64,000 nucleotides of DNA from Thermoanaerobaculia bacterium (GCA_046331405.1 JAXLQX010000001.1:576471-640470), one strand, 5' to 3'. Shown: positions 1 to 43,157, counted from the first letter of the stretch. The notes: generated from the sequence alone by a model not told the origin. Translations and numbers: made by a program.

Positions 1-1159
1 AGGCTTTGGAGCAGCGCCGCGGGAGCGCCGAGAATCTCTTCCTCGGGGCTCGTGCCGGCGAGCAGGCCGCGGCGCAGCGCCCCCGGGCAGCAGGCGATCC
101 GCTCAGCGTAGTCCCGGGCCAGGGCGCCCACTTCCCGAACCGGCTCGGCGAGCGGCCGGGCCTCTCCGAAGCGCCGAGGCGGGCCGAAGAGCTCGTCGCC
201 CCCCTCGCCCGAAACGATTCCGGAAAGGTCGCTCGAGGCCGTCTCCAAGAGCACCGAGGTGGGCAGCACCGCTTGGTCGCCGATCGGTTCGTTGAGGTGG
301 GCGGCGAGGGTGGCGAGGCGCTCGAGGTGGCGCTCGCCCACCGCGACCACGCGGTGCTCGAAGCTGAGCGCACTGGCGACTTCGGCGGCGTCCCGGGATT
401 CGTCGTAGTCCGGATCCTCGAAGGCCGCCGTCAGCGCCACCGCCCGGCGGCTCGAGCGCGAAAGGAACACCAGGTTGGTGGAAGAGTCGATGCCGCCGCT
501 CGCGAAGGCGCCCTGGGGCCCGTCCGCCTGCGGCAGGCGGCGGAATGAGGCCAAGAGACGCATCTCGAGTTCGCGGTCCAGTTCGGCTTGGGCCTTGGCG
601 GGAGCCTGGTCGTCGAAAGCCGGAAGCCAGTAGGGCGAGCAACTAAGGCCGCTCGGGCCGAGCTCCAGAAGATGGCCGGCCGGCAGCTTGCGCACGCTGC
701 GGAAGGCGGTGCGATCGAGCGGGAAGAACTGGAAGGCGAGGTACAGGTTGAGCGCTTCCAGGTCGAGTTCGCGGGAGAGGTCCGGCCGGCAAGCGAGGCG
801 CTCGAGCCGCGAGGAGTAGGCAAGGCCCCGGGCGATCGGCGAGTAGAACAGCGGCTCCCGGCCCAGGCGATCCCGGGCGAGCAGCAAGCGCTGCTCGGCG
901 GGATCCTCCACCGCCAGGGCGAACGAGCCTCGGAGATCGGCCACGAAGCCGGCGCCGAGTCGCCGATAGAGCTCGGTGAGCAGGGGCACGGGGTCGCCCT
1001 CGAGCGCAGGGCGGTTCAGCCGGCGGGCGAGCTCCTCGAGGTTGGTGAGCTCCCCTTGGAAGCGCAGCTCGAGGCCCCGGCCCGGCCTCTCCGGGCCCGT
1101 CCGGAACTCGCCGAGCAGCGGCTCGGCCGTCCTGGCCACGGGGGCGATCAGGGTCACCG
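1..1159 (-). CDS. Asparagine synthetase (AsnB)-like amidotransferase; 3' end runs off the window. GTG start overlaps the upstream stop codon.
   Basis: Manual reverse-strand translation from 1159 down to 1 (absent from the ORF track because there is no stop in the window) gives ...LRFQGELTN...LLLARDRLGREPLFY...KLPAGHLLEL... and the PP-loop motif SGGIDSS. The protein begins VTLIAPV, so it lacks the MCG N-terminal cysteine of class-II glutaminase domains. GTGA overlap with gene 1154-2056. Confidence 0.6.
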
Positions 1160-2056
1160 GCCGCCCTCGAAGGTGCCCACGAAGCTGATCAGCTTGTTGA
1201 GCTCGAGCATCGCCGGCACCAGATGCATCGATCTGCCGATCAGCATCTGGATCACGCCGTCGGCGAAGCCCAGGGCCTCGCGGGCGAGCCGGCCGGCGTC
1301 GGAGGCGAGGGCCGGGAAGAGCGAGGCGACCAGGGGATCGACGATCTCGGCGCCCAGGGCGTCCCGCTGGCGCTCGAGCAGGCGAGGGCGCCATTTGGGG
1401 TGGAAATGGGTTTCGCCCACGGTGGCGAGAGCTGCCGCCGCCAGCGCGTCCATCGCCATGCGCAGGGTGGTGAGAGCGGTCAAGGAGTCGCCGTACTGCA
1501 CCTGCGCGATGGTGTCCTCGCGGTAGGTGTAGTGCAGGGTCAGCCAATGCAGGACCAAGTAGTCGCGCAGGCCGCCGAGCCCGAGCTGGCTGCGCCAGCG
1601 TTCGGCGTTGTCGGCGTTGACCAGCGGAATGCCGGTGTGCATCCGGTGCAGGAAGCGCAGCTCCATCTCGCTGAAGGTCTCGAGCTTGACGAAGCGCGCC
1701 GGATCCTGGATCACGGTCACCACTTCCCGCAGCCGATCGCCGATCCGCGCGACGTCGTCGCTGCGCCAGTACTCGACGTTGAGCTCCTCGCCACCGTCGA
1801 GGCGGCGCACCGACTGCTCGAACTCGGCCTCGTTGATCAGCACGCCCTGGCGCAGGGTGCCGTCGCCGAGAATCATCAGGTCGATATCCGAGAGCGGGTT
1901 GGCGAGGCCTTCGGCGATCGAGCCCACCAGGAGCAACGTCTCCGAGTCCGCGAGCGGACCCACCTGGAGCGCCAGGTCGTTGAACGTGAGGCCCCACCGG
2001 GCGAGGAAGTCGGCGGCTTCGGCGGTCGGGCTTTCGAGGGCGGCTGTCTGCGTCAT
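1154..2056 (-). CDS. Nucleotidyltransferase-domain protein (Pol-beta superfamily)
   Basis: 300-aa ORF with the G-S-x(9)-D-x-D NTase signature (GSIAEGLANPLSDIDLMIL). Its ATG overlaps the upstream stop (ATGA) and its stop overlaps the AsnB-like start, so it sits inside an operon. Confidence 0.5.
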   Translation of the reverse strand: MTQTAALESPTAEAADFLARWGLTFNDLALQVGPLADSETLLLVGSIAEGLANPLSDIDLMILGDGTLRQGVLINEAEFEQSVRRLDGGEELNVEYWRSDDVARIGDRLREVVTVIQDPARFVKLETFSEMELRFLHRMHTGIPLVNADNAERWRSQLGLGGLRDYLVLHWLTLHYTYREDTIAQVQYGDSLTALTTLRMAMDALAAAALATVGETHFHPKWRPRLLERQRDALGAEIVDPLVASLFPALASDAGRLAREALGFADGVIQMLIGRSMHLVPAMLELNKLISFVGTFEGGR

Positions 2057-3654
2057 GGATTCGCCCCTCCTTGGGCGGTTTGCGAGCGGGACGAGCGGGC
2101 TCGGAGCAGGCCCAGCTCGGCCCCGACCTCCGCGAAGGCGGCCAGGCCGGCATCCAGCTGCTCGCGGCTATGAGTGGCCATCACCGTGGTGCGCAGCAGG
2201 GCCCCTTGCTGGGGCACGGCCGGATGCACGGCGCAGTTGACGAAAACTCCCCTCTCGAGCAGCGACCGGGCCGCCGCCATGCACTTCGTGTCGTCGCCGA
2301 TCAGCACCGGCACGATGGCGGAGGCCGAGGTGGCGACCTCGAAGCCGAGGCGCTTTAGACCACCGCGCCAATAGCTCGCGTTGTCTCGCAGCCGGGTGAG
2401 CCGCCAGGGCTCGGCCTGGAGGATGTCGAGGGCGGCCGAGGCGGCGGCGAGGGCGGTGGGCGGGATGGCGGCGGTGAACACGATCGACCGCCCCCGGAAG
2501 CGGATCCAGTCGATGACGTCCGGATCTCCGGCCACATAGCCGCCCACCGAGGCGAGGCTCTTGGACAGGCTTCCCGACAGGATATCCGCCAGCCCGATCC
2601 GCCCCACGTGCTCCTCGCTGCCCTTGCCCGAGCGGCCGAGGGTGCCGATGCCGTGGGCGTCGTCGAGGGCCAGGCGAACCTCGTGGCGGTCGCAGACCTC
2701 GCGGACCTCCTCGATCGGCGAGAGGTCGCCGTGCATCGAGTAGACGCCGTCGACGATCACCAGCGTGGGCCGCGAGGGCCGCCGGGAGAGCCGGCGGTCG
2801 AGGTCGCTGGGGTCGTTGTGGCGGAAGGCGATCACCTGGCAGCCCGCCACGCGGGCGCCGTCGAAGATCGAAGCGTGGCAGGACTCGTCGGCGAAGAGCA
2901 CCGAGCCGGCACCCATCAAGGCCGAAAGCATGCCGAGGTTGGCCTGGTACCCGGTGGTGAAGATCAGGGCATCGCCACGGCCCAGAAACGCCGCCAGCTT
3001 CTCTTCCACGGCTCGATGCAGCGTGGTGGTGCCGTTAAAGAGCCGCGAGCCGGTGAGGCTCGAGCCTTCCACCAGCGCCGCGGCTGCGACCGCCTTGCGT
3101 ACCCGGCGGTCGGTGGTGAGGCCGAGATAGTTGCCCGAGCCCAGCATGATCGCGTCGCGACCGCGATGGCTGCAGATGTCGCCGTCGTTGCGGGCGAGCT
3201 CGACGTAATAGGGCAGGAGGTCCTTGGCGCGGAGCTCGCGGGCCAGGGTGAAGTCGCGGGCCTGCTGCAGGGGATCGAGGGGAACTCCGGGCGAGCTCGG
3301 GCGGGCGTCGCGGGCCTTCGCGGCCCGCCCCGGACCCCTCTGCTCGAGCCAGCCGGCGATCCTGCCAGCCAGGGCGCGAGGGGTCAGCGCGTCGAGGTGC
3401 TCGTCGAGCTCCAGCTCGAAGCCGTAGCTGCGCTCGAGCAAGGCCTGGAGCTCGGCCATCCGCAGGGAGTCCAGGCCCAGGCTCAGGATCGGCAGGTCCG
3501 GCGCCACTTCGTCGGCAGACAGGCCGGCGCTGGCCGCGAGCTCGGCGCGGAGGTCTTCGAGCACGAGTTCGCCGCCGGGGCTCGCTTCCGGCGCCTGCAG
3601 AGGCTTCGACGCACGCTCCTCCACGAAGTCGGCGGGAGAATGATCAGGGCTCAC
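2053..3654 (-). CDS. ACP-fused alpha-oxoamine synthase (AONS/serine palmitoyltransferase family, PLP-dependent)
   Basis: N-terminal carrier-protein motif LGLDSLRMAELQALLE, then an AOS fold with the PLP-lysine region SGSLSKSLASVGGYVAG and the GTLGRSGKG loop. Start re-placed at a GTG overlapping the FAAL stop (CCGTGAGCC). The 785-aa track ORF is a Pro/Arg-rich N-terminal artefact that overlaps the FAAL gene. Confidence 0.8.
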   Translation of the reverse strand: MSPDHSPADFVEERASKPLQAPEASPGGELVLEDLRAELAASAGLSADEVAPDLPILSLGLDSLRMAELQALLERSYGFELELDEHLDALTPRALAGRIAGWLEQRGPGRAAKARDARPSSPGVPLDPLQQARDFTLARELRAKDLLPYYVELARNDGDICSHRGRDAIMLGSGNYLGLTTDRRVRKAVAAAALVEGSSLTGSRLFNGTTTLHRAVEEKLAAFLGRGDALIFTTGYQANLGMLSALMGAGSVLFADESCHASIFDGARVAGCQVIAFRHNDPSDLDRRLSRRPSRPTLVIVDGVYSMHGDLSPIEEVREVCDRHEVRLALDDAHGIGTLGRSGKGSEEHVGRIGLADILSGSLSKSLASVGGYVAGDPDVIDWIRFRGRSIVFTAAIPPTALAAASAALDILQAEPWRLTRLRDNASYWRGGLKRLGFEVATSASAIVPVLIGDDTKCMAAARSLLERGVFVNCAVHPAVPQQGALLRTTVMATHSREQLDAGLAAFAEVGAELGLLRARSSRSQTAQGGANP

Positions 3655-5384
3655 GGGTGGCTCTCCACAAGGTCGAGGGTTTGGGCGAGAAAGGCCTCTC
3701 GCATGGCCGTGCGGCGGATCTTGCCGCTCGAAGTCCTGGCCACCGAGGCGGGCCGCAGGAGGGCGATGGCGAAGACTTGCAGCTCGTGGTCGCGAGCGAT
3801 GGCCTCGCGGATCGCCGCAAGGACCGCCGTGCGATGCTCCGGTCGGTACTGCCGGTCGACCTCGTGAGCCACGACCAGCCGCTCCTCGCCGTCCACCAGC
3901 ACGGAGAAAGCGGCGCCGGCGTCGCGGCGAAGCAGGATGTGACAGGTCTCGACGGTCCGCTCGATGTCCTGCGGATAGTGGTTGCGACCGCGAACGATGA
4001 TCAGGTCCTTGCGGCGGCCGCTCACGAAGAGCTGGCCGTCGGCCAGGAAGCCGAGGTCTCCCGTGCGCAGGAACTGTGTGCCGTCGCCGCCTGCGAGAGT
4101 CGCCCCGAAGGTCTCGCGGCTGGCCTCCGGCTCGGCCCAGTAGCCGCGGGCGACACTCGGCCCGGCCAGCCAGATCTCGCCCACGGTGCGCTCGGCGAGG
4201 GGCCGGCGGCTTTCCGGGTCCACCACCAGCAGGCGATGGCCAGGAACCGCCTCGCCGCAAGAAACCAGCTCCCGCTGCCGGGTTTCTCGCCCGCTCACCG
4301 CCGGGGCGGCTCCGGCCTCCAGGGCTGCGGCGTCCAGACGTAGCACCGTGGGGTGCTCGCCCCGGCGGCTGCCGGTCGCCATCAGGGTGGCCTCGGCGAG
4401 CCCGTAGCAAGAGTAGAAGCTCTCCCGCCGGAAGCCGCAGGGCTCGAAGTAGCTGGCGAACCGCTCGAGCGTCTCGGCGTGGATCGGCTCGGCGCCGGTG
4501 AACATCAGCGTCAGCGAGGAGAGGTCCAGCGTGTCGCGCTCGGCCGGGGTGATCTTGCGCAGGCAGAGGTCGAGGCCGAAGTTCGGGCTGCCGGTGGCGG
4601 TGGCACGAAAGCGGGTGACCGCCTGCAGCCAGCGCAGAGGCCGCTGGACGAAAGCGAGCGGTGGCAGCAGCACCACCGGGAAGCCCGCGTAGAGGGGTTG
4701 CAGGACGGCGCCGATCAGCCCCATGTCGTGGTAAGGCGGCAGCCAGGCCACGCCCACGCTTTGCCGGGAGTGGCCGAAGCAGTGCTCGATCACCGCCAGG
4801 TTGGCGAGCAAGTTGCCGTGGGTGATCTCCACGCCCTTGGGCGAGCCGGTCGAGCCGGAGGTGTACTGCAAGAAAGCGAGGTCTTCTTCCCGCGCCTCGA
4901 AGGGGCTCCGTAGCGCCGGGGATTCGCCATCGATCGAGTCGCTCGCCAGCCAGCGCAGCTCGGGGAGGAAAGGGCTCAGCTTGGCGGCTGTTGCGGCGCC
5001 GGCCAAGGCCAGCGAAGCTCCGCTGCTGCCGGCGATCGCCTTCAGCCGGGCGAGGCCGCGCCCGGGTCGGGGCAGATAGGTGGGAACCGCCACCATGCCG
5101 GCCAGGAGACAGGCGAAGAACGCCCGGATGTAGTCCAGGCCGGGGGGGTAGAGCAGCAGCACGCGCATGCCGGGCTCGGCGAGCTGCCGCAAGGCCCCGG
5201 CGAGCCGAGAGGCATCGCGCTGGAGTTCGCCGTAGCTCAGGACCTCGCAGCTCTCCGCCTCGCCCTGCGGACAGAACCGGTAGAGAACCTCACCGGGGCG
5301 CTCGCAAGCCTCGCGCAGCAGCAACTCGACCAGCGAGCGGGAGTGCCCTTTCCGGGGATTCGGGGTGGTCACGGAGCTCTCCAT
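3651..5384 (-). CDS. Fatty acyl-AMP ligase (FAAL-type adenylating enzyme)
   Basis: Motifs FLQYTSGSTGSPKGV, LPPYHDMGLIG, SPNFG and YRTGDLGF, as expected for FAAL/long-chain AMP-ligases. Only 3 nt separate it from the MFS stop. Confidence 0.8.
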   Translation of the reverse strand: MESSVTTPNPRKGHSRSLVELLLREACERPGEVLYRFCPQGEAESCEVLSYGELQRDASRLAGALRQLAEPGMRVLLLYPPGLDYIRAFFACLLAGMVAVPTYLPRPGRGLARLKAIAGSSGASLALAGAATAAKLSPFLPELRWLASDSIDGESPALRSPFEAREEDLAFLQYTSGSTGSPKGVEITHGNLLANLAVIEHCFGHSRQSVGVAWLPPYHDMGLIGAVLQPLYAGFPVVLLPPLAFVQRPLRWLQAVTRFRATATGSPNFGLDLCLRKITPAERDTLDLSSLTLMFTGAEPIHAETLERFASYFEPCGFRRESFYSCYGLAEATLMATGSRRGEHPTVLRLDAAALEAGAAPAVSGRETRQRELVSCGEAVPGHRLLVVDPESRRPLAERTVGEIWLAGPSVARGYWAEPEASRETFGATLAGGDGTQFLRTGDLGFLADGQLFVSGRRKDLIIVRGRNHYPQDIERTVETCHILLRRDAGAAFSVLVDGEERLVVAHEVDRQYRPEHRTAVLAAIREAIARDHELQVFAIALLRPASVARTSSGKIRRTAMREAFLAQTLDLVESHP

Positions 5385-5387
5385 CGC

Positions 5388-6509
5388 TCAGGAAGGCTGG
5401 GCCGCCGGCAGGGGCCTCGCGGCGGGGCTGCCCAGCAGGGCTGAAGAGATCAAGGCGAGAAGCGCTGCCCCGCGCATGAGCCAGAGCATCCCGCCGGGCC
5501 GGGCGAGGGCCAGGAGACCCGAACTCGCCGCCCCCAGGGCCAGCCCCAGATCGAGGCAGAAGGCGGCGAGCGCGAGCGCCTGGCCTTGGCGAGCACGGCC
5601 GGCGCGATCGGAAACGCCCACCAACGAGGCCGTGCCGAGGCCGCCCACACCGAGGCCGTAGACCAGCGCGATCGCCGAGACGGCCAGGGCTCCCCGCACC
5701 TCGGAAGCGAGGCCGAAGGCCACGCAAATCAGGAGCGATCCGAGTAGGGCCACCGGCTGCCGGCCCAGCCGATCGCTGCTCGCGCCACCGAGGAGGCGGC
5801 CCAGGGCGAGCGCCAGCCCGAAGGCCAGGTAGACCGGGGGCAGCGAACTCACCCCCTGGCGTTGAGCGATCGCCGGCAGGAAGGCCTCGAGGCTGCCCAA
5901 AGTGACTCCAGCCAGCACCAAGGGGGCGAAGGCGGGCAGGAGATCGCGCATCGAGGCCGGTGCCGAGTCGGCCGGTTCGGGCCGACCTTCCACCGCGAGC
6001 AGGCCCGAGAGCAGGGCCGCACCGGCGCAGAGCAGGAAGAGGGTCTGGGCGCCGAGAGAGTCCAGGACGGCGACTCCCACGGCCGGCATCAGGATGAGGG
6101 CGAGCCCCGAGACGGCGGTGAAGAGCCCCAGCCGTCGACCTTTCTCCTCCGGCGCGCCGCAGCGAACCAGCCAGGCCTGGGAGGCGGTGTAGAACAAGAA
6201 CACGGCGATGCCCTGGACCAGCCGAGGAGCCAGAAGGCCCCAGCCCACGGGCAGGACTGCGAAGCCCAGGTGGGCGGTGGCGAAGAGCAGCGCCGCGCCG
6301 CGCAGCAGGGGGCCGGTCGAGCGGCGATCGAGCCAGGAGCCGGCGAGGAGGCGCAGAAGGCCCGCCGAGATTGCGTAGGCGCCCACCGCGACACCCACCA
6401 GAAGAGGGCCGGCGCCCTGGCGAGCGAGATAGATCGGCAAGGCGCCCAGCAAGAGCGAGTGCGCCCCGACCACCAGGAAGGCAGCTAGAACGAGACGGCC
6501 TATGGCCAT
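5388..6509 (-). CDS. MFS transporter
   Basis: 373-aa polytopic hydrophobic protein with about 12 predicted TM segments rich in G/A/L. It is the first gene of the minus-strand operon. Confidence 0.6.
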   Translation of the reverse strand: MAIGRLVLAAFLVVGAHSLLLGALPIYLARQGAGPLLVGVAVGAYAISAGLLRLLAGSWLDRRSTGPLLRGAALLFATAHLGFAVLPVGWGLLAPRLVQGIAVFLFYTASQAWLVRCGAPEEKGRRLGLFTAVSGLALILMPAVGVAVLDSLGAQTLFLLCAGAALLSGLLAVEGRPEPADSAPASMRDLLPAFAPLVLAGVTLGSLEAFLPAIAQRQGVSSLPPVYLAFGLALALGRLLGGASSDRLGRQPVALLGSLLICVAFGLASEVRGALAVSAIALVYGLGVGGLGTASLVGVSDRAGRARQGQALALAAFCLDLGLALGAASSGLLALARPGGMLWLMRGAALLALISSALLGSPAARPLPAAQPS

Positions 6510-6860
6510 TGCGAAGGCTTCAACATGTAGTGGTGTACTACCCCGAAATCAAGATAATCTGACAAGAGACGGTGGCAGGAGTCGGACAGGTCAGCAAGAC
6601 CACCCCTCGCCGCAATCAATCAAACTGCGTTCACATTGTCGCCTGGTCGATTCCTTTGTGTCAACGAGTTTCTGATCTACTTTTTGGAGACTCCTTGTCT
6701 TGCTGGCCCGGGGGCGGTCCCGAACTAGCTCGGCTGCTTGCTGCAAGTGCTTGACTGGAAAAGAGTTGAAACAGGCTGGGCTGAGCCGGTGGGGAGCCTC
6801 AGGAAAGAGGAGCCGCCGTGCCAGCCGGAGGCCTCGGCCGGCACGGCGGTGATGTGAGGC

Positions 6861-9266
6861 CTACTCGTAGGTCACGATCAGCTGCGGCCGGTCGGTGGAA
6901 GCGGCCTCGCCGCCGTAGAAGATGTAGTTGTCGTAGCCGGCGTCGTCGTTGTCGTCGACGGCGAAGTGCAGCCGGATCTGGGTGCGGCCGGTCTTGTTGA
7001 TGAGCGAGATGCCGGTCGCGTTGAGCGAGCACTCGGCCCAGTCGCCGTTGGCCAGGGGGTCGCTCAGCCAGCAAACACCCAAGGCTCCGGCGGTGGCTTC
7101 GAAGTCGCTCGCCTCGAGGGCCGTGGTGCCGAAGGTGCCGCTCTTGATGTCGGCCAAGAGCACGCCGTGGGTGGTGAAGGGGTCGGTGCCCACCAGGCTC
7201 TTGCGCTTCACCTTGAGCCGGGCGAAGAGGATGGTGGCGGCGTCCGGGATGTCGGAAGTCGAGAAGGAGAGGATGCCCTTCCTCTGCTCATCGAGGTTGT
7301 TGTCGCCCACGGAGATATCGGTCGTGGACAAGTAGTCCCCCACGCCGGAGAACTCGGAGGACTCCTGCACCCAGCCGTCCTCCGAGGCGAGCGAATAGTA
7401 CGTGTTGACGATACCCAGCTTGGGCAGAACCCGGGCCTCGTAGGCCACATTCTCCTTCTGGCTCTCGGTGGAGAAGTTCGGGTAGTAGTGGCGGGTGTCG
7501 GTCCACGCCATCGAGAGCGTGGAGCCCACCAGGTCCACGCCCAGGTACTCGCCGTACTGGTTGGGGTTGTAGTTGGCGTTGTCGCCGGAGTTCTCGTCCG
7601 AAGTGGTGCGGGCGGAGTTGTTGAACTCGGTGGAGGCCTGGGTCAGCTGCAGGTTGGAGAAGGTCACGCCGCAGTCCCGCGAGGTGCCGTAGTAGATGTC
7701 GATGAGCTTGTTGTTGGGGTGGTTGCGGCCGTCGTGCCACACCACGGCGAGTTCGCCATCGTACTGGTCCACTGCCAGAGTGGGGTGGAACTGGATGGCC
7801 TCGGTGAAGCCGGCGTTGTTCACCTTGGTAGGACCGAACCAGAGGGCCCCACCGAACACGCCACGAGTCACCCAGACGTCGGTGTCTTCGATGCCCTGGC
7901 CGGTGTCGAAGTCGTCGAAGGTCACGTAGACGGTGCCGTCGCAGGGACCGCCGGAGCGATCGACGTCGATCGAACCCAGGGTGCCGATGCAGCGGTCGTT
8001 CTGGGCCAGCGGGCAGTTGCCGCCCGAGAACTCGGTCAGGTTGTAGTCGCGCAGCAGGCGCGGGTTGGTCCAGGTGGAACCGCCGTCCACCGAGGTGGTG
8101 TAGTAGAGCTTGGTGTTGGTGCAGGCGAAGGCTCCGCAGGTCAGGTTGTTGAAGATCAGGTGGATCTTGCCGGCCTTGTCGATGGCGAGGTCGCAGCCGA
8201 GGTCGAGAGTGCCCACCGCCGGCGAGGGCAGGTCCACCTCGGTCCAGGTGACGCCGTTGTTGGTCGAGTAGGCGAATTTCTCGTTGTTGTTGCGGTCCCA
8301 GCAGGTGTAGTGACGGCCGTTGTAGGGGCTGGTCGTCACCCGATCCACCACGTAGAAGTTCTTGTCCTCCACCTGATTGGGCGTCGGCCAGCTGTTTTTC
8401 ACCACGCCCTGGGCTGTCCAGGTGGCGCCACCGTTGGCCGAGCGGGCCACCACCATCGAGAACCAGAAGTCCGAACCGTTCGGCGTGCACAGCAGCATGT
8501 AGTTCAGGAACACCTCGCCGCTGGCGTTCCAGGCCAGGGCCGGGTCGCTGCCGAACTCGGTGCCGGTGCAATTCGGGAAGCCGGCGTAGGCGGTGTGATC
8601 CGGGGCGCAGGTGTAGCCCCAGCCGGTGCCCCCGTTGCCCGAGTAGAAGATGGCGATCGTGCCGTCGCCGCAGCCGGTGCCAGGCGAATCCCAGGTGTTG
8701 GCCGCAGCGACGATCTGGCTGGTATTCGAGGGGTTGACGGCGATCTGGATCTCACCCTGGTAGTCCTCGGGAGCCGGGAAGGAGGTGGCGGCGAGGTTCC
8801 GGTTGCCGGCCACCCGAGGCGCCAGGGTGACAGTCTCGGTGCGGTAGGCGTCCAGCCGCCTCGCCAGGCGGGCGTCGACTTCGGCGTCGCCGTAGAGCTT
8901 GCGGGCGTCGTCCTCGTGGAAGCCGATCCACTGCGTGTGCCACTCGTCGATCAGCTTCGGGATCACCACCTCGAAGCGGCGGGTGAACATGTCGAGCTTG
9001 AGCCGCTCGAGGGGCGAGAGGGGCAGGGCCTTCAAGTAGGCCTCCACGGCCGCGGGGTCCTTCATTCGGCCCGGCTTGCCCAGGTCGAGGGCGGCGAGCG
9101 AGGGGTCCGTCTTGGCGCGCTCGTAGAGGGGGCGCAGCAGTTCTTGCCGCTGCTGGGGCGAAAGCCCAGGGTTGTCGCCGGCGAGCGCAGGGCTCGCCCA
9201 GCCCCCGAGCGCCCAGGCGAGGGCCGCGGCAATCAGCTTCCAGGTACCGCCGTTCTTGCTTGGCAT
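6861..9266 (-). CDS. Secreted BNR/Asp-box repeat protein (sialidase-like beta-propeller)
   Basis: Start re-placed at the internal Met (rc ATG at 9264-9266, preceded by AAGGAG), giving signal peptide MPSKNGGTWKLIAAALAWALGGWASPALAG. Repeated S-x-D-x-G-x-T-W Asp-boxes: SANGGATWT, STNNGVTWT, SVDGGSTWT, SRDCGVTFS. The upstream 174 aa of the track ORF is rejected. Confidence 0.7.
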   Translation of the reverse strand: MPSKNGGTWKLIAAALAWALGGWASPALAGDNPGLSPQQRQELLRPLYERAKTDPSLAALDLGKPGRMKDPAAVEAYLKALPLSPLERLKLDMFTRRFEVVIPKLIDEWHTQWIGFHEDDARKLYGDAEVDARLARRLDAYRTETVTLAPRVAGNRNLAATSFPAPEDYQGEIQIAVNPSNTSQIVAAANTWDSPGTGCGDGTIAIFYSGNGGTGWGYTCAPDHTAYAGFPNCTGTEFGSDPALAWNASGEVFLNYMLLCTPNGSDFWFSMVVARSANGGATWTAQGVVKNSWPTPNQVEDKNFYVVDRVTTSPYNGRHYTCWDRNNNEKFAYSTNNGVTWTEVDLPSPAVGTLDLGCDLAIDKAGKIHLIFNNLTCGAFACTNTKLYYTTSVDGGSTWTNPRLLRDYNLTEFSGGNCPLAQNDRCIGTLGSIDVDRSGGPCDGTVYVTFDDFDTGQGIEDTDVWVTRGVFGGALWFGPTKVNNAGFTEAIQFHPTLAVDQYDGELAVVWHDGRNHPNNKLIDIYYGTSRDCGVTFSNLQLTQASTEFNNSARTTSDENSGDNANYNPNQYGEYLGVDLVGSTLSMAWTDTRHYYPNFSTESQKENVAYEARVLPKLGIVNTYYSLASEDGWVQESSEFSGVGDYLSTTDISVGDNNLDEQRKGILSFSTSDIPDAATILFARLKVKRKSLVGTDPFTTHGVLLADIKSGTFGTTALEASDFEATAGALGVCWLSDPLANGDWAECSLNATGISLINKTGRTQIRLHFAVDDNDDAGYDNYIFYGGEAASTDRPQLIVTYE

Positions 9267-9308
9267 CGTAGTCTCCTTGGTCGAAAATAAAATGGCTATG
9301 AGCAACTC

Positions 9309-9980
9309 GTGAGATCGTTGGAGGAGTTGCTTCCCTGTTCCATGGCGACATCGACTCAAGAGACTGGACATTCGCCCCGGCAAGAGCCGGGAGAGGTCAC
9401 CCGCTGGCTCGAGCAGCTGGCCCTGGGGGACGGCTCGGCCCTCGACCGCCTGGTGCCTCTGCTCTACGACGAAATGCGGCAGCTGGCGCGTTCGCGGCTG
9501 CGCGCGGAGCGCCCGGACCACACCCTCTCCCCCACGGCCCTGGTGCACGAAACCTACTTCCGCCTGCTCGACCAGCGGAGCATCTCGGCCGCCACCCGGC
9601 TGCAGTTCTTCGGCGCCGCCTCGCGCACCATGCGCCGGGTGCTGGTGGACCACGCCCGCACTCGCAACCGCCGGAAGCGCGGCGGCGGCGAGGCCCTCCT
9701 GCCCCTGCCGGAGGCCGGTCCACTGCTCACCGAGGCCGCCTGCGCCGAAGTTTTGGCCCTGGACGAGGCTTTGACCCGCCTGGAGCAATGCGAGCCGCGA
9801 GTGGCTCGGATGGTGGAGCTCAAGTTCTGGAGCGGGCTCTCCTTCGAGGAGATCGCCGGCCTCCTGGGCATCTCCACCAAGACCGTGCAGCGAGACTGGC
9901 GAGCCGCGCGGGCCTGGCTGCGCAAGGAAGTGCGAGGCGAGGCGGCCGGCGGTGTCCCTCGGCCGGGCCCTTCGGCCTGA
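9309..9980 (+). CDS. ECF-type sigma-70 factor of the subfamily found paired with Ser/Thr kinases (TIGR02999-like)
   Basis: Region 2 (ALVHETYFRLL) and region 4 (WSGLSFEEIAGLLGISTKTVQRDWRAARAWLRKEV) signatures. Immediately followed by a Ser/Thr kinase. Confidence 0.75.
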   Translation: MRSLEELLPCSMATSTQETGHSPRQEPGEVTRWLEQLALGDGSALDRLVPLLYDEMRQLARSRLRAERPDHTLSPTALVHETYFRLLDQRSISAATRLQFFGAASRTMRRVLVDHARTRNRRKRGGGEALLPLPEAGPLLTEAACAEVLALDEALTRLEQCEPRVARMVELKFWSGLSFEEIAGLLGISTKTVQRDWRAARAWLRKEVRGEAAGGVPRPGPSA

Positions 9981-10001
9981 ACGCGAAGGAGGAGCCCAGC
10001 C

Positions 10002-12608
<2,607 letters not shown>

Positions 12609-12646
12609 ACGAAGCGGGGGCAGGCCCGGACGCAGGCACCGCGCCC

Positions 12647-13552
12647 CTACAGCGCAGGTGCGGGCTCGATGCGCGCCCACTCCCGGTAGCCGTCGTAGAG
12701 GGCGGCGAGCACCAGCATGGCCCCGACCGCGCCGAAGATCGGCATGGCGACGCGGTTCGCCAGGGTGGATTCGAAGATCTCGAACGGCTCGCGCGAGAGG
12801 AGTGTGCGCATCGGCAGGGCGTGAGCGACCAGGAGCAAACCCAAGCCGGCGTTCGCCACAGCGATCCCCCAGCGCGACCAAGGGCGCCAGCCGCCCCGGA
12901 CGAGGACCGCGAGATGGACCCCCACCACCCCGGCAAAGGCCAGCAGGGTTGCCGCCCGCTGCCAGCTGTCGCGAAACGCCTGAGTGAACTCGAGGCCGGA
13001 GGTAGGGACCGCGCCCAGGAAGGCCAGCCTCACGAACGCTTGCGGCGCGAGGTACTGGAACACCGGGAAAGCCAGAAGGGCGACGACGGGGATCAGCGCC
13101 AGAATTCTCGGCATCGCCGCCGGCTTTTCCACCCGCTTCGGCCGCCAGCGCAGCACACCGGGGCCCTGGCGCCGGCGTGCCCAGGCGAGCCCGGCGAACA
13201 CCAGGAACACCGCGCCGACCCAGCCGAGGAAGGTGATGCCGGCCTGGGGATTGCGCAGCGTGGCGACCACCGACCCTACCAAGGCCCAGATGAAGAGGTT
13301 GTGGTTGTCCGCCGGGTCGATGATCGGGGCGCGGGGAGCGTAGCGCGAGGCGGCCTCCGCCGGCCGGCCGAAGCCGGCCAACAGCTCCATCACCATGGCC
13401 TGGTCGGGCGGCTTGCCCGCAGCCGCTGCCTTGGCCGCCAGCTCGTCGGCGAGCAGGGCGCGGAGCTCGAAGGCCACATCGTTGCGCTTGTCCCGCGGCA
13501 GGTATTGGGCTACGTCGCGCACGTAGGAATCGATCACTTGGCTGGCATTCAT
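12647..13552 (-). CDS. DUF1700/HAAS-like membrane protein (sensor partner of PadR)
   Basis: Soluble N-terminal domain MNASQVIDSYVRDVAQYLPRDKRNDVAFELRALLADE, then about six TM helices. Located directly downstream of a PadR gene. Confidence 0.55.
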   Translation of the reverse strand: MNASQVIDSYVRDVAQYLPRDKRNDVAFELRALLADELAAKAAAAGKPPDQAMVMELLAGFGRPAEAASRYAPRAPIIDPADNHNLFIWALVGSVVATLRNPQAGITFLGWVGAVFLVFAGLAWARRRQGPGVLRWRPKRVEKPAAMPRILALIPVVALLAFPVFQYLAPQAFVRLAFLGAVPTSGLEFTQAFRDSWQRAATLLAFAGVVGVHLAVLVRGGWRPWSRWGIAVANAGLGLLLVAHALPMRTLLSREPFEIFESTLANRVAMPIFGAVGAMLVLAALYDGYREWARIEPAPAL

Positions 13553-13564
13553 CGCCGCCTCCGT

Positions 13565-13888
13565 TCACTCGAGAAATCCGTTGATCACCTGCGCCTGCGC
13601 CCGCCACGCTTCGGCGAGGGCCGTGAAGGTCCGTTCCCCCTCGGGGCTCAGCCGGTAGTAGCGGCGCGGCGGCGCGAAAGTGGTGTTCCATTCGCTCGCC
13701 AGCAGCCCCTGCGCCTCCAGCCGCCGCAGCAGCGGGTAGAGCGTGCCTTCCTCGATCGGCATGCCCCCCTCGGCGAGCGCCTGCCGCAGCGAATAGCCGT
13801 ATTGCGGCGCCCGAAGCCGGGAAAGCACGGCCAGAACCAGCACCCCGCGCCGAAGTTCCGTCAAGCCTGTGTTGTCTCGATCTACCAT
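13565..13888 (-). CDS. PadR-family transcriptional regulator
   Basis: Winged-HTH signature GYSLRQAL...EGTLYPLLRRLEAQGLL...RRYYRLSPEG. Start chosen at the internal Met (rc ATG 13886-13888); the track ORF extends to 13963. Confidence 0.7.
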   Translation of the reverse strand: MVDRDNTGLTELRRGVLVLAVLSRLRAPQYGYSLRQALAEGGMPIEEGTLYPLLRRLEAQGLLASEWNTTFAPPRRYYRLSPEGERTFTALAEAWRAQAQVINGFLE

Positions 13889-15811: not shown

Positions 15812-18484
15812 CTACCCTACCGTCACCACCACCGCCGGGGAGAGGTCTCCGAACCACTCCTCGCATTCGTGCACCATGCGCCACTGGAAGGGGTAGAGCC
15901 CCGGCACCAGCGGAGCAACAGCGCTGAAGTTGAGGGTCACCTGGCCGCCGGGAGGTACCGGGGCGGGCAGCTCCACTCGGTTCAGGCCCCAGGTATTGTT
16001 CCCGTACGGGTTGGCGGAGCCCAGCCGGAAGGCTTTGCAGCTGGGGCCCACGGGGTCCCAGGGCAGGCTGCCGGTGTTTTTCACCGTGAGGCTCACCGCA
16101 AAGCGATGGCCGGCGCCCACGGCGGTGGGAACCGTCTGCGAAAGGAACAGGGCGGCCTTCGGCGGCGGGTCGTCGTCGAGGATGGTACCGACGGCCTGAG
16201 TCGCCAGGGCGTGAGCGCCCAGTACGTTCGAGAGGTTGAGGGTGAAAGTCTCGGTGCCCTCGAAGTCCGGATCGCCCTGCACCAGCACGGAGACGACGGC
16301 CTGGCTCTGGCCGGCAGGGATGGCCACGGAGCGGCTCACGCTCTGGTAGTCGTAAGGGGCCACCGCTGAGGCGTTCGCGGTGGCGACGTCGAAGGAGACT
16401 TCGGTGGGCGCCGGATGAGTGAGCTGCACGGTGAATTGGGCCGCAACGGTGCCGCGGTTGCCTTCGGTGACCGTGGCACCGGTGACAGTGAGATCCGGCG
16501 TCTGGTCCGCCACGGTGAAGGTTGCCCAGGGGCTCGCGAGGCCGGAGCCGAAGGCGTTGCTGCCCTGCACGTGCCAGGAGTAGGTGCCGTCCGCCAGGGG
16601 CTGCGAGGGCCGGAAGCTGCACGTCGTGCCGTCGCACACGCCGGCAGCCGGTACGGTTCCCGAGTACGCGAGCTGCCAGCCGGGCGTGAAGGCCTCGAGC
16701 AGGTAGCTCTCGGCTTGCGCCCCCGGGAACCAGGTGTAAGTGGGCTGAGCCGTGGGCACCGTGCCGCCGTCGGGGGCGATGCCGGAGGCCGTACCGGGAG
16801 GAGAGCTGGGGTTGCATTGCGGGGTGAAGAAGCGAATCACCGAGTAGGGCTCGGTGTTGGTGCCGGTGAACGCTTTCACCTTGATGCGGTACTCCGGCCC
16901 GGGTTGGAGCAGGCCGGCCGGGAAGGTCCAGCTGGTGCCGGTGGGTCCCACGCCGCCGGGAATCACCTCCGGGTCGTTGCTGATGTCCACCACCCGGTGG
17001 ATGCGCAGCACGTAGTAGAGGGCGTTCGCCACCGGGGTCCAGCTCACCGTGGGGGTGAGGTTCGCCGTGCAGCCGAGCGGCGCGAGGATCGCCGGCGGGT
17101 CGACCGGCTGGCAGAACGGCACGAAGTACTGGCCGTCCGAGCCACTGCCCCAGCCCAGGTTGTTCATACCCCAGACTCGTAGCAGGTAGGGCCGCCGGGC
17201 AACCAGCGAGCCGGGCACCACGACCTGGTTGGTGGTGGGGGTTTGGTCCGCCATGGCCTCTTCACCGGTACTGGCGTCGAGCAGGCGCACGTAGAACTGC
17301 GACGATTCATGGCCCCGCCACGAGAGGGTGGGGTTCAGCGTGCTGATGCAGCCCCGGGGGTTCAAGGTGTCCGGCCGGCCGGGAGGCGTGTTGTAGATGT
17401 GCGCGGTGGCCATCGGCACATCCACCCAGGCGGGCCGCCCGGCGGCATTCCAGGCGCGCACACGATAGCGGTACTCGTCCGGCCCGAGGCCGGTGGGCGG
17501 CAGCTCGCCCACGTCGTCGAGGAATCCGGTCTCGTCGGCCCCGACATCGAAGAGCTGCACCGCGCCGGTGCGCGGGAGCACTCGCTGGATCTGGAAGCCG
17601 GCTTCGTTGTCGCTCCGGTCCTGCCAGGAGATCTCGATCGCCGTCTCGCCACCCACCACGGGCAGGGCCACCAGGTTGATGGGCTGCTGCGGCAGGCTGG
17701 CCGGCGGAGGGGGAGGCGGTGGGGCTCCGCCGCAGGCGTAGGTCTGGCCGCCGCAGCGCACCCAATCGGAGCCCGAGGCGCAGCTTCCTGCGCCGCAGGT
17801 GCCGGGGGCGCTGCAAGAGAGCGGTGAGCCGTCCGGGCAGGTGATCGCGGCGGTGCACAGCGTGTTGGCGTTGCAGAAGATCTTGTAGGTGGTGGAGTCC
17901 ACGTCGTCGATGCCGGGGGTGGTGTGCTCGGCCGTCCAGCCGGCAGCCGCGCCTTGATCGAAGACGTCGCTCTTGCAGTAGCTGTGGTCGATCTGCACCT
18001 TGCCCACGTAGTCGTCGAACGGCAGCGGCGCCTCGTCGTCTTCGAGGATGCGATAGACGCCCAGGCCGAACTGCGCCGGGGAATTCACCGTCTGCTGGCA
18101 ATACACGCAGGGGTAGCGGCGCGAGGAGTGCTGCAGCCAATGGTCGGCGGTCCATTCCCACTGCTTGGGCCAGCCGCTGCCCACCAGGATGGGCCCCTGG
18201 AAGTTGCTCGCCCAGACCCGCACATCCCAGCCGGTCAAGCCGCCCAGAGCTCCGGGCACGGTGCCGGTCTTGGGATCCCCGGCCTGGGCGAAGTAGGCGT
18301 AGCCTTCCGGGCCGTTGCAGACCAACGGGCAGGTGGCCTCGTGGATGTCCCAGATGGCCGCGCCGGTGATCAGCGCGTAGGAATGATAGGTGCCGGTCTC
18401 GGAGCAGGACTGAGCGCGGCCGGGTGGGGCGGTGGCGAGCCCGACGAGCAGGGCGGCGAGAAGGAGTAAACGGAAGGGTCTCAT
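15812..18484 (-). CDS. Large secreted multidomain protein with Calx-beta and Fn3/Ig-like domains
   Basis: Signal peptide MRPFRLLLLAALLVGLATAPPGRAQS. Poly-Pro linker. Calx-beta-like segment TVTEGNRGTVAAQFTVQLTHP...FEGTETFTLNLSNV...GTILDDD. Confidence 0.6.
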   Translation of the reverse strand: MRPFRLLLLAALLVGLATAPPGRAQSCSETGTYHSYALITGAAIWDIHEATCPLVCNGPEGYAYFAQAGDPKTGTVPGALGGLTGWDVRVWASNFQGPILVGSGWPKQWEWTADHWLQHSSRRYPCVYCQQTVNSPAQFGLGVYRILEDDEAPLPFDDYVGKVQIDHSYCKSDVFDQGAAAGWTAEHTTPGIDDVDSTTYKIFCNANTLCTAAITCPDGSPLSCSAPGTCGAGSCASGSDWVRCGGQTYACGGAPPPPPPPASLPQQPINLVALPVVGGETAIEISWQDRSDNEAGFQIQRVLPRTGAVQLFDVGADETGFLDDVGELPPTGLGPDEYRYRVRAWNAAGRPAWVDVPMATAHIYNTPPGRPDTLNPRGCISTLNPTLSWRGHESSQFYVRLLDASTGEEAMADQTPTTNQVVVPGSLVARRPYLLRVWGMNNLGWGSGSDGQYFVPFCQPVDPPAILAPLGCTANLTPTVSWTPVANALYYVLRIHRVVDISNDPEVIPGGVGPTGTSWTFPAGLLQPGPEYRIKVKAFTGTNTEPYSVIRFFTPQCNPSSPPGTASGIAPDGGTVPTAQPTYTWFPGAQAESYLLEAFTPGWQLAYSGTVPAAGVCDGTTCSFRPSQPLADGTYSWHVQGSNAFGSGLASPWATFTVADQTPDLTVTGATVTEGNRGTVAAQFTVQLTHPAPTEVSFDVATANASAVAPYDYQSVSRSVAIPAGQSQAVVSVLVQGDPDFEGTETFTLNLSNVLGAHALATQAVGTILDDDPPPKAALFLSQTVPTAVGAGHRFAVSLTVKNTGSLPWDPVGPSCKAFRLGSANPYGNNTWGLNRVELPAPVPPGGQVTLNFSAVAPLVPGLYPFQWRMVHECEEWFGDLSPAVVVTVG

Positions 18485-18561
18485 GATGTCTCTCTCCAGC
18501 CGAGACGAGAAGGGCCCCGGCTGCGGAGAGAGACGGAAAACGACCGAGAAAGGGGCCAGCT

Positions 18562-21372: not shown

Positions 21373-21629
21373 CCGAGGGACCCTCCAGTCCATCCAAGGA
21401 CTTGCGTCGAGCGAGTGATGTCCGGCCCGCAATGGGCGCAGTATGTTTCTACGGCATAGTAACACGTGAAGGCTAGGCCTCCGAAAAGTGCACACTGCAA
21501 GGCCTACACCATAGAGGAAAGAGCTCCAGTGGCTCAAAATGCGCCACTTTTCGTCACCGCCGAGGCGCTGAAGCGCCTTTTTCCGTCGCCGAGCGGGGCT
21601 CGGTGGGTGTGGCAGAATGAGCTCCGGCG

Positions 21630-23249
21630 ATGATCCGCGGCGAGCCGAGAACCTCCACGAGCCACTCCTGGGCACCCCTCCGACGCGACGAGCGATGGGT
21701 GGAGCCTCGCCCGGGAACCGGGAATTTCTCCCTGGCCCTGGTCTACGCCAACGGCTACGAGATCGGCATGTCGAGCCTCGGCTTCCAGCGGGTCTACCAG
21801 CTGGTGGGGCAGCGGCCGGGGTGGCAGGCGGAGCGATTCTTCACAGACGGCAGCGGCATGCCGCTCTCGGTGGAGTCGGATCGCCCACTTTCCTCCTTCG
21901 GCGCCGTGGCTTTCTCGGTCTCCTTCGAGGAGGACTACGTGAACCTCCTCCAGCTGCTGGACCGGGCGCGCATCCCGCTTTTCCGCCACCAGCGGGGAGG
22001 CTGGGATCCGCTGATCATTCAGGGCGGCTCTTGCGCTTCGATCAACCCTCTTCCGCTCGCCGATCTGGTGGACGTCTTCACGCTCGGGGCGGCCGAGAAC
22101 ACGCTGCCCGCACTGCTCGCGGCGCTCGAGGAAGAGAGCGGAAGGGAGGCGGTGTTGGAGCGGCTGGCCGGGCAACCGGGCTTCTTCGTGCCGGCCCACC
22201 ATCATCCTGAGGAGGAGGGCTTCGCCAAGCTCGAGAAGCTCGAGCTCACGGCCGAGCAGTTCCGCCAGCCGGGTCACCTGCCCACCACGGCGATCGTCAC
22301 GCCGCATACGGAGTTCGCCAACAAGTTCCTGGTCGAGATGTCCCGCGGCTGCCCGGAGAAGTGCAAGTACTGTTGGGCCACTTTCGGCATGGGCACTTTC
22401 CGCTGGCATCCCACGGAGTACATCCTGGGAGCCCTGGAGCGGGCGCGGCCGGTCACGGACCAGGTGGGCTTCGTGGCCACTGCCGTGGGCGACCATCCGG
22501 AGGTGGAGCGGATCCTCGGAGAGTCCTGCCGCATGGGCTTCCGGGCGTCGGTGTCGTCGATCCGCATCCCGGCAGTGACCGAGGGGGTTCTGGAAGCGCT
22601 CTTCCGCTCGGGGGACCGCTCGATCACCCTGGCCCCTGAAACCGGCAGCGACCGGCTCCGAGCGCACCTGAACAAGCCGATCAAGAACGCCACCCTGCTC
22701 GAGAAGGTGAGGCTGATCTTCGAGCAAGGGTTCACCCAGCTGAAGCTCTATTTCCTGGTGGGAGTGCCGGGGGAGACGCTCGAGGATGTGCAGGCGATCC
22801 TCGACCTCGCTCAGGAGGCTCGAGCCATCCTGGTCGAGAGGGGGCGCCGGAGCGGGCAGCTGGGGCACCTCCACCTGGGCACGAACATCCTGGTGCCGAA
22901 GCCGTTCACTCCCTGGCAGCGGGAGCCGATGGCGGAGGAAGCGAGCCTGAAGGAGAAGCTCGCGTTGCTCAAGCGGGGCGTGGCGCGAATGCCGAATGTG
23001 TCGATGAGCGGCGGAATTTCGATCCGCCAGGCGATCTGGCAGACCTACCTGAGCAAGTCAGGGCCGAGCGCGGCGCCGCTTCTGGTGGCCGCGGCCCGCG
23101 GCCAAAGCTTGGCCTCGCTGCTACGCGAGCACGAGGAGGAGATCCGGCCGGTGGTCTTCGGGCGCATCGATGGAGAGTGCCGCTGGCACTTCCTGCGGCA
23201 GAGGAATACCAGCTTGCCGGCTCAGGAACGTCTGGTGGGCGTGAGCTAG
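21630..23249 (+). CDS. B12-binding-domain radical SAM protein
   Basis: Canonical CxxxCxxC site [12 protein letters not shown] after an N-terminal Rossmann-like domain ([16 protein letters not shown]). The exact start is uncertain. Confidence 0.6.
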
Positions 23250-23290: not shown

Positions 23291-23375
<85 letters not shown>

Positions 23376-29557: not shown

Positions 29558-29900
29558 GTCGGCTCCTTTCCCCTCCTGTGCTCGGAAGGCCGGTCCCGTT
29601 TCGAGCCTCCCTGAGATTCTCTCGACTTCGCCGTCGGAGAGCACCCGATCGGCTCTCCAGGTGGGAGAAGTCCTCCACGGCGGGAACCTCGGCCGGCCGC
29701 TGTGCCGGCGCAGAACTCTCTCACTCAGCGAGCCACTGTGACTCCTAAATGCAGCCGAGGAGATTTGCGGGACAAGGAACGGACCGGGCGATTCGAGCGA
29801 AGGCCGCCGTGAAATCTCGCATTAATCAGGAAGGTCTTTAGTTTGGCGAGCGCGCCAGGGTTCGAGTTGCCCCTTCGTTTCGTGAGCTATACTTTGGACA

Positions 29901-36680: not shown

Positions 36681-36711
36681 GCGTGGCCGTGCCCCATGTC
36701 GGAGCCATGCC

Positions 36712-42700: not shown

Positions 42701-43157
42701 GAGCCGAGGAACCGGCGACGGGAGCGAGCGAAGGGCTCAGCGCCGCGAGCCTCGCGCGCTTGCCGGCCGCCGAGCGAGAGGCCCGACTGCGGGAGTACCT
42801 GCGCGAGCTGGTGGCCCGGGTGCTCGGCCTGCCTGCGGCACGCCTCGAGGACGACCGGCCGGTGAACCGCCTGGGTATGGACTCGCTGATGGCCGTGGAG
42901 ACCCGCAATCGCGTGGAGATGGACCTCGGGGTGAGCGTTCCCGTGGTGACCCTGCTCCAGGGGGCCACGCTGCGGGAGCTCACGGAGCGGATCCAGGCGG
43001 AGCTGGGCGCGAGCCCTGCCGGCTCCGCCGCTCCGCCGCCGGCCGGCCCCGGCGAACCCGGCCACGAGGTGGTTGCCGAGATCGACCTCGAGGCGCTCTC
43101 CGAGGGCCAGGTCGACTCGCTCTTACGAGACCTCCTGGAGAGCCAGGGCAGCGCTCC

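Follow-up and report, generated by a model that had tools for sequence, protein, structure and literature searches.

What product would call for the enzymes of sphingoid-base formation, a small-molecule nucleotidyltransferase and an exporter in a single transcription unit? The question is raised by one end of a 64,000-nucleotide stretch of DNA (GCA_046331405.1, JAXLQX010000001.1:576471-640470; below, the window) from an uncultured Thermoanaerobaculia (Acidobacteriota) bacterium. Positions 1-6509 of its minus strand are occupied by five co-directional genes which encode, in order of transcription, a major facilitator superfamily (MFS) transporter, a fatty acyl-AMP ligase (FAAL), an acyl carrier protein fused to an alpha-oxoamine synthase (ACP-AOS), a nucleotidyltransferase (NTase) and an AsnB-like protein. 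Together with the genes that follow them beyond the window, they would, with a probability that we place somewhat above even, build a specialised, exported sphingoid-type aminolipid bearing a nucleotidylylated hydroxyl.

Structure and extent of the operon

The gene for the MFS transporter, a putative exporter (5388-6509, minus strand; 373 aa; Pfam MFS_1, E=1e-41, residues 6-327), is the first of the operon and not the last, as it had been listed. It is followed on the same strand by the FAAL gene (3651-5384; 577 aa; Pfam AMP-binding and AMP-dom_DIP2-like), the ACP-AOS gene (2053-3654; 533 aa from a GTG start; Pfam PP-binding and Aminotran_1_2), the NTase gene (1154-2056; 300 aa; Pfam NTP_transf_2) and the AsnB-like gene (1-1157; GTG start at 1157; GATase_7/GATase_6 and Asn_synthase), which runs past the left edge of the window. 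The domain calls made for all five genes in the initial annotation are borne out by Pfam and NCBIfam. The four junctions were read from the sequence exactly as it had described them: a 3-nt gap (tga-gcg-ATG), then GTGA, ATGA and GTGA. The NTase gene, in the middle of the operon, overlaps both of its neighbours by 4 nt.

The operon region has a G+C content of ~71%. A terminator-like hairpin on the minus strand (6813-6849; 15-bp stem with 13 G-C pairs) lies directly after the upstream gene, which encodes BNR repeats. A sigma-70-like promoter match, TTGACA-18-GACAAT (6635-6664, minus strand; 10/12 positions), lies ~125 nt upstream of the MFS start codon; this call is a consensus match alone, of which shuffled sequence is expected to give 0.2. 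The two features suggest that the unit plausibly begins at the MFS gene, with the hairpin as its 5' boundary.

An exact-sequence look-up of the NTase protein matched four public contigs, among them a 36-kb ENA contig (L001) whose proteins are identical to those of the window, start codon apart. The initial annotation was right about the five genes and fell short on extent, as on these near-identical contigs the operon holds 11. Downstream of the complete AsnB-like gene (L001 10900-12573; 557 aa) are six further genes encoding a Nudix protein (275 aa; REUxEExGU box intact), a protein related to nucleoside diphosphate kinase (NDK-like; 376 aa), a second and complete AsnB (630 aa, starting MCG), a cytochrome P450, an extended short-chain dehydrogenase/reductase (SDR; best models HpnA and the lipid 3-oxo reductase OleD) and, last in the operon, a class I methyltransferase. 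All 11 genes are translationally coupled or closely spaced, and a convergent S8 peptidase gene (L001 19555-20901) comes after them. Against the PDB, the P450 and the SDR found distant and uninformative relatives alone (CYP120/CYP51 and a putative oxidoreductase, respectively). Two independent metagenomic contigs have the same gene order, L008 with proteins 59-77% identical and L005 with proteins 44-53% identical, which indicates that the arrangement goes beyond chance.

A ligase and synthase for a probable long-chain base

The 577-aa ligase is, by sequence comparison, predicted to be a FAAL rather than an acyl-CoA ligase. Its top 15 PDB matches are all FAALs or FAAL loading domains, scoring from 519 bits (7r7e) down to 212. 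Relatives of known structure include the Legionella FAAL 3kxw, FadD23/32/28 and the E. coli FAAL 3pbk, while acyl-CoA ligases reach 93 bits at most. Among NCBIfam models the top matches are those for FAAL and FadD32/21/28, ranked behind a 4334-residue model of a nonribosomal peptide synthetase/polyketide synthase (NRPS/PKS) that matches the FAAL only over its adenylation region (positions 9-566). The cognate carrier is encoded next to it, in the ACP-AOS gene that overlaps the FAAL gene by GTGA. The carrier domain (3358-3555, minus strand; Pfam PP-binding, residues 34-99) contains the phosphopantetheine-attachment serine, Ser63, within the motif LGLDSL. Domain and motif evidence agree that FAAL and ACP-fused AOS form a coherent loading and condensing pair, as was first proposed.

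The AOS domain (2053-3264, minus strand; Pfam Aminotran_1_2) has serine palmitoyltransferases (SPTs) as its best NCBIfam models and aligns end to end with the SPT of Sphingobacterium multivorum (305 bits, 39% identity). Lys365, the pyridoxal phosphate-binding lysine in SLSKS, together with His260 and Asp331/His334, aligns with Lys244, His138 and Asp210/His213 of that enzyme. Ser185, Ser243, Phe272, Gly80 and Ser81 (SPT numbering) are also kept, and all of the catalytic residues whose roles are described for SPT (PMC10196870) are conserved. The AOS scores 373 and 367 bits against the SPT models of NCBIfam, 330 against bioF (TIGR00858), 313 against KBL, 233 against ALAS and 220 against the autoinducer synthase/CqsA model (NF005526), all of these falling under the curated cut-offs of the models. 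Against the PDB the order is similar, with SPT at 305 bits, KBL at 240 and CqsA structures at 117. By these comparisons the domain is SPT-like, and nearer to SPTs than to BioF, KBL, ALAS or CqsA.

The bioF score raises the possibility that the AOS is BioF and the operon one for biotin synthesis, a reading that was named at the outset as one that would overturn the first assignment. The 330 bits lie under the cut-off of the model (426) as well as under the SPT models, and the best PDB and NCBIfam relatives are bacterial SPTs. No bioA, bioD or bioB gene was found within 10 kb on either side of the operon. We know of no biotin route that includes a FAAL and an ACP fusion, and biotin synthesis can be discounted almost completely.

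A second alternative takes the product not for a structural or antibiotic lipid but for a diffusible small-molecule signal like those of CqsA/LqsA, an autoinducer of the alpha-hydroxyketone or amino-ketone class. CqsA and LqsA are likewise AOS-family enzymes dependent on pyridoxal phosphate that convert an acyl thioester and an amino acid to a secreted amino- or hydroxy-ketone. The matches to NF005526 and to CqsA structures, the exporter, and an extracytoplasmic function (ECF) sigma factor and Ser/Thr kinase encoded upstream would all be compatible with such a signal. However, the similarity is well below that to the SPT models, and the presence of a FAAL and a dedicated ACP suggests that the substrate is a long-chain free fatty acid. 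The known systems are without FAAL, ACP, NTase or AsnB genes, and no CqsS/LqsS-type sensor kinase adjoins the operon. A signal of this kind seems quite improbable.

The product had been called a long-chain alpha-amino ketone. A long-chain aminolipid is still the class favoured; the bare ketone is less likely than an amino alcohol (a sphingoid base), because the downstream SDR, P450 and methyltransferase make the latter the likelier scaffold. Most simply, the scaffold would be a reduced, oxidised and methylated long-chain base.

This lipid-building half resembles an experimentally established route. In Caulobacter and other Proteobacteria a dedicated acyl-ACP synthetase and a dedicated ACP feed SPT (PMC9386255). 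The AasR/AcpR/Spt (+CerR) module and the operon are alike in having a dedicated ANL enzyme that loads a dedicated carrier, from which the acyl chain is used by an SPT-type enzyme. They are also alike in a reductase encoded nearby, CerR being NDUFA9-like (PMC11087976) and the SDR of the operon being of the extended class. The operon differs in the fusion of its carrier to the AOS, in an activating enzyme of the FAAL type, and in its exporter, P450, methyltransferase, NTase, Nudix and NDK-like proteins and two AsnB paralogues. We take NDUFA9 to be a member of the extended SDR class as well.

The resemblance allows for ordinary membrane sphingolipid (ceramide) synthesis, in which the operon is an Acidobacteriota version of AasR/AcpR/Spt/CerR and its other genes concern the head group or are unrelated neighbours. 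In favour of this are the closeness of the AOS to bacterial SPTs, the shared route of synthetase, carrier and SPT, and the likeness of the reductases. In addition, Spt-like genes occur in 38 phyla, often away from bCerS or CerR (PMC11334938). On the other side, none of the 11 products matches an acyltransferase family of Pfam and no ceramide-synthase-like gene was seen among them. The first gene of the unit encodes an exporter, and among the others are those for a P450, a methyltransferase, an NTase, two AsnBs, a Nudix protein and an NDK-like protein. The NTase and Cys-less AsnB-like clades described below are very rare and patchy, a pattern more in keeping with a specialised metabolite than with a core membrane lipid. 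Ceramide synthesis is accordingly regarded as unlikely, if the strongest of the alternatives considered here.

The nucleotidyltransferase

The NTase had been listed as one item among five; it is instead the operon's most informative gene and the hallmark partner of the AOS. It matches Pfam NTP_transf_2 above the cut-off, and in an alignment of 15 homologues G45-S46 is invariant while D57, D59 and E91 are at least 90% conserved. A sequence search against the PDB returned no match at E<=10. An AF2 model built from the 15 homologues (pLDDT 90) has as its top Foldseek matches ANT(4')/kanamycin NTase, the oligodeoxyadenylate synthase HalB, ANT(4')-IIb, LinB and AadA. Like ANT(4')/KNTase (1kny, 6nmk), ANT(4')-IIb (4ebk), LinB (3jyy) and AadA, the protein has a two-domain layout, with an N-terminal Pol-beta fold containing GS...DxD...E and a helical C-terminal domain. 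These enzymes place a nucleoside monophosphate (NMP) on a hydroxyl of amino-alcohol-rich small molecules. The NTase differs from them in its low sequence identity (10-16%, at a TM-score of ~0.5), in its biosynthetic operon setting, and in belonging to a family that is elsewhere fused to AOS or ACP. The model predicts an ANT(4')-like small-molecule O-nucleotidyltransferase fold, and nucleotidylylation of a hydroxyl is predicted from that similarity.

The family is small. An exhaustive profile search of 1.84 billion sequences found 124 representatives at E<=1e-30 and 672 at E<=1e-10, superseding a word-indexed search that had given 15 relatives among 5.8 billion proteins. In a genome collection, the NTase alignment found two loci only. 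Three members are natural fusions: NTase::AOS (P0165), AOS::NTase (P0251) and ACP::NTase (P0004), the AOS parts being 37-39% identical to the AOS of the window. The occurrence of NTase-AOS fusions in both orders is strong evidence that the NTase works together with the AOS step, and against its being a passenger or a resistance gene.

These fusions bear directly on another explanation, namely that NTase, Nudix, NDK-like and AsnB proteins form a self-resistance or pro-drug module against a toxic aminolipid, or a nucleotide or defence cassette that is in the operon by coincidence. Structurally, the NTase is nearest to enzymes that inactivate antibiotics (ANT(4'), LinB, AadA) and to HalB, a defence NTase. 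Producers often phosphorylate or nucleotidylylate their own antibiotics, as with fosfomycin (FomA/FomB) and chloramphenicol phosphotransferase. The fusions to AOS in both orders and to ACP instead point to an assembly step, and the NTase gene is embedded in mid-operon by its 4-nt overlaps with both neighbours. No significant defence-system match was found by PADLOC for the five proteins of the window. We hold resistance or defence to be unlikely, a little more so than ceramide synthesis.

Two more specific roles for the NTase were considered and rejected. For a defence or toxin-antitoxin function there is just a 16-bit match to MntA and a partial PADLOC match of 19.9 bits, the other four proteins having no PADLOC match at all. 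Nothing supports attachment of a non-canonical prosthetic group to the ACP, as carried out by MdcG and CitX, and the DSL motif of the ACP is normal.

The AsnB pair, Nudix and NDK-like proteins

The AsnB-like protein was described as lacking its N-terminal Cys nucleophile within a window that contains 385 of its 557 codons. The loss belongs to the protein itself and is no artefact of the window edge, which cuts the 3' end of the gene. The protein starts VTLIAP and aligns only from position 26 of the GATase_7 profile and position 73 of TIGR01536. In the alignment it is without MCG and RGPD and has QGE in place of NGE, while the PP-loop SGGIDSS and SGEGGDE are intact and invariant. An upstream start that would restore the glutaminase domain had been suggested as a check; none is available in frame, the upstream frame being Arg/Pro-rich and overlapping the NTase gene. 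Two close orthologues and a distant paralogue are also without Cys2, and the orthologues are also without RGPD; all four proteins keep the PP-loop. The two orthologues (59% and 44% identity) are the only close relatives, and both occur in the same type of cluster. Beyond them scores drop from 476 to 233 bits for generic full-length AsnBs.

The protein presumably still adenylates a carboxylate without hydrolysing glutamine. AsnB-family enzymes without the nucleophile include beta-lactam synthetase/CarA, lasso-peptide cyclases and PdmN-type amide synthetases, in which the acyl-adenylate is caught by an amine other than glutamine-derived ammonia. The likeness to beta-lactam synthetase and the lasso cyclases is in principle only, and consists in the loss of the Cys1 nucleophile with retention of the PP-loop adenylation site. 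Matches to the lasso-cyclase and macrolactam-cyclase models of NCBIfam are weak (81 and 55 bits, far under the cut-offs), and the protein is closest to EpsI and the glutamine-hydrolysing AsnB clade. Unlike those known systems, it is always accompanied by a complete AsnB paralogue. The complete copy of this operon carries Cys2 (MCG) and is predicted to be glutamine-dependent. Loss of the nucleophile had suggested an ammonia-dependent or non-canonical role. The loss stands, but dependence on ammonia is not the sole option, given the glutamine-dependent AsnB encoded three genes downstream. The Cys-less protein may cooperate with the complete copy; alternatively, the amine that it ligates may not be ammonia.

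In the NDK-like protein ~147 residues adopt the NDK fold (TM-score 0.8-0.86 normalised to the target) with the KPD motif, Arg160 and the catalytic His174 kept. Its helical C-terminal domain of ~180 residues is without structural match, and a scan with its 5-sequence alignment found one metagenome locus only.

Related gene neighbourhoods

A survey of NTase-family genes yielded 12 distinct architectures. The closest (L008, NTase identity 75%) repeats the whole operon. At L008 13734-14876, after the SDR gene, the methyltransferase is present only as a short fragment (18% coverage, 64% identity), and may be decaying or dispensable there. L005 encodes an MFS transporter, NTase, Cys-less AsnB, Nudix, NDK-like protein, AsnB, a weak R2lox-like di-iron protein, AOS, an amino-acid permease and an SDR. 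The minimal set is that of L016, with TetR, an ABC exporter, NTase::AOS, methyltransferase, P450, SDR and an amino-acid permease; its methyltransferase, P450 and SDR are 42-49% identical to those of the operon described here. L009 carries ACP, AOS, methyltransferase, two radical-SAM-like proteins, Nudix, two dTMP-kinase-like proteins, a HIT-like protein, NTase, SDR, P450 and ABC exporters, and L017 carries AOS::NTase, an MFS transporter, an AroB-like cyclase, SDR, NDK-like and dTMP-kinase-like proteins and a GHMP kinase. Clusters L005, L009, L016 and L017 are each adjoined by MFS or ABC transporters. AOS, NTase, SDR, P450 and methyltransferase form the conserved core. Pocket residues of the AOS show no systematic difference between clusters with and without the AsnB pair, which lends no support to a side chain derived from Asp or Glu.

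Other members of the family are found in more distant settings. In L006/L011 (Vicinamibacterales) the NTase follows a FAAL-ACP-KS-AT-DH-KR-ACP PKS with a dTMP kinase nearby, and in L010 and L018 it is paired with a ketosynthase and an NDK-like gene. L007 combines it with a distant NDK-like protein, a methyltransferase and a PhyH-family oxygenase. In L012 and L015 the NTase is accompanied by a fatty-acid desaturase, an NTP_transf_5 protein and a P-loop kinase-like protein. L012 is the cultured gammaproteobacterium Dokdonella soli JCM 15421 (NZ_BAAAEU010000007.1, 6999-13871), whose NTase-family gene is distant; the neighbours there are the desaturase, the NTP_transf_5 protein, the P-loop (dTMP-kinase-like) protein, a class III aminotransferase and a Zn-ADH, and the strain offers a possible experimental entry point. 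A nucleotide-kinase-like gene, either NDK-like or dTMP-kinase-like, is found beside the NTase in at least 10 of the 12 architectures, with the GHMP kinase in addition in L017.

A distant five-gene block in L013 (8126-15410) and L014 (3772-8441) consists of an NTase-like protein, Nudix, NDK-like protein, AsnB with Cys and AsnB without Cys, beside NRPS-like and sugar genes. Its partners are a CYTH protein, UDP-glucose dehydrogenase, HIT and a GT4 glycosyltransferase. Also among the partners is a divergent set made up of ACP, acyl-CoA dehydrogenase, amino-acid:carrier ligase and condensation domain. Recurrence of the block with different partners makes it look like a portable module in its own right.

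A proposed pathway

In the pathway that we favour, the FAAL would adenylate a free fatty acid and load it onto Ser63 of the fused carrier domain. The SPT-like AOS would then condense the acyl thioester with a small amino acid, with loss of CO2, to give a 3-keto long-chain base; serine is the most likely substrate. The OleD/HpnA-like SDR would reduce the ketone, the P450 oxidise the chain and the methyltransferase methylate it. The ANT-like NTase would move an NMP from a nucleoside triphosphate (NTP) onto a hydroxyl of the amino alcohol; the NDK-like kinase would provide the NTP or regenerate it, and the Nudix protein would trim a nucleotide by-product or intermediate. The glutamine-dependent AsnB and its Cys-less partner would carry out ATP-dependent amide formation on a carboxylate, and the MFS protein would export the product.

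Several observations weigh against this scheme. The AOS departs from the reference SPT at Asn52 and Ala79, and its amino-acid specificity is unreadable from sequence, there being no reliable code. Condensation with serine is decarboxylative and hence leaves no carboxylate for two AsnB enzymes, which is a gap in the scheme. The parts given to the Nudix and NDK-like proteins are guesses. The lack of any acyltransferase match among the 11 products implies a free or otherwise modified long-chain base, which would be unusual for bacteria. The NTase acceptor could be the amino-acid substrate, the carrier protein or a phosphate rather than a hydroxyl. Finally, apart from the distant NTase homologue of Dokdonella soli, all related loci are metagenomic, and the pathway is known from genes alone.

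If a hydroxyl is nucleotidylylated as proposed, the NMP would either stay on the lipid as a phosphodiester head group, giving a 'nucleolipid', or act as a leaving group, both outcomes being compatible with the sequence. The second outcome would explain the co-encoded NMP and nucleoside diphosphate kinases, because NTP would be regenerated from the released NMP. A bolder proposal, which we put forward tentatively and with more doubt than confidence, is that, in one or other of these forms, the AOS-NTase pair marks a class of bacterial lipid, or of lipid chemistry, that has yet to be described. The first form, a 'sphingo-nucleolipid' in which a sphingoid base is phosphodiester-linked to a nucleoside, is weighed as part of this joint proposal and is similarly speculative. 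Synthesis or recycling of its nucleotide would fall to the NDK-like, dTMP-kinase-like, GHMP-kinase, Nudix and HIT proteins of the clusters, and amidation of the nucleotide to the AsnB pair. In the leaving-group form the beta-amino alcohol would be converted to a new kind of product, for example an aziridine, an enamine or alkene, or a substituted amine, with the kinases regenerating NTP from NMP.

Activation of a hydroxyl before elimination has precedents in the sulfotransferase-thioesterase of CurM and of olefin synthase, and in the phosphorylation of class III/IV lanthipeptide synthesis, where a good leaving group is placed on a hydroxyl formed on the assembly line or directly after it. In L006 a PKS ending in KR-ACP and followed by the NTase and a beta-lactamase-fold hydrolase may be compared, by position, with ACP-ST-TE. 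Nucleotidylylation is not known to drive elimination anywhere in lipid or polyketide biosynthesis, and the likeness to these systems is an analogy only.

Genomic surroundings

Directly upstream of the operon is the BNR/sialidase-repeat gene (6861-9266, minus strand), with a G+C content of 0.62-0.66 against ~0.71. Over its C-terminal part the product shares 48% identity with the C-terminus of the S8 peptidase encoded at the other end of the cluster. This common C-terminal domain of the two flanking proteins looks like a secretion or anchoring domain. Divergent from the BNR gene are the genes for the ECF sigma factor (9309-9980, plus strand) and for the Ser/Thr kinase, an 821-aa protein with TPR repeats (10143-12608, plus strand). 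These could be regulators of the cluster; neither is kept beside L008 or L005.

Further into the window are two large surface-type proteins (PKD repeats; Calx-beta/fn3; 15812-21840, minus strand), tRNA-Leu(GAG) (23291-23375, minus strand), which is the sole RNA gene found in the window, a 734-aa radical SAM protein (27617-29821, minus strand) and a MacB/FtsX-type permease (29886-32393, plus strand). A complete reducing type I PKS module (KS-AT-DH-ER-KR-ACP, 2199 aa; 36562-43161, plus strand) lies ~30 kb from the operon and probably belongs to a second, separate biosynthetic cluster. A giant NRPS-like open reading frame of 3528 aa (51841-62427, plus strand) continues in 62428-64002 (plus strand), with three condensation, two adenylation and two carrier domains. 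It contains an unusual Sulfotransfer_3 domain (residues 2755-2970) that recalls the hydroxyl-activating sulfotransferase of CurM and olefin synthases.

Implications

Full-text literature searches for this gene combination found no paper describing it. What appears to be new is a probable specialised aminolipid cluster that carries an uncharacterised nucleotide-handling and amidotransferase module, the lipid half being a fused variant of the known Spt/AcpR/AasR module. The pairing of Cys-less and Cys-containing AsnBs with a Nudix protein and a long NDK-like protein is a second uncharacterised module, which recurs in the unrelated NRPS and sugar context of L013 and L014. The minimal four-enzyme version of L016 (NTase::AOS, methyltransferase, P450 and SDR) is small enough to be synthesised and expressed, and makes the proposal directly testable.

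Sphingoid lipids are potent effectors of membranes and signalling. The locus suggests that some bacterial Spt-like genes serve specialised pathways rather than plain ceramide synthesis, and that such pathways tie the AOS firmly to a nucleotidyltransferase, in some cases by fusion, with nucleotide kinases and hydrolases alongside. If the nucleotide stays on the lipid, this would represent a new class of lipid head group; if it leaves, it would represent a new activation chemistry for amino alcohols.

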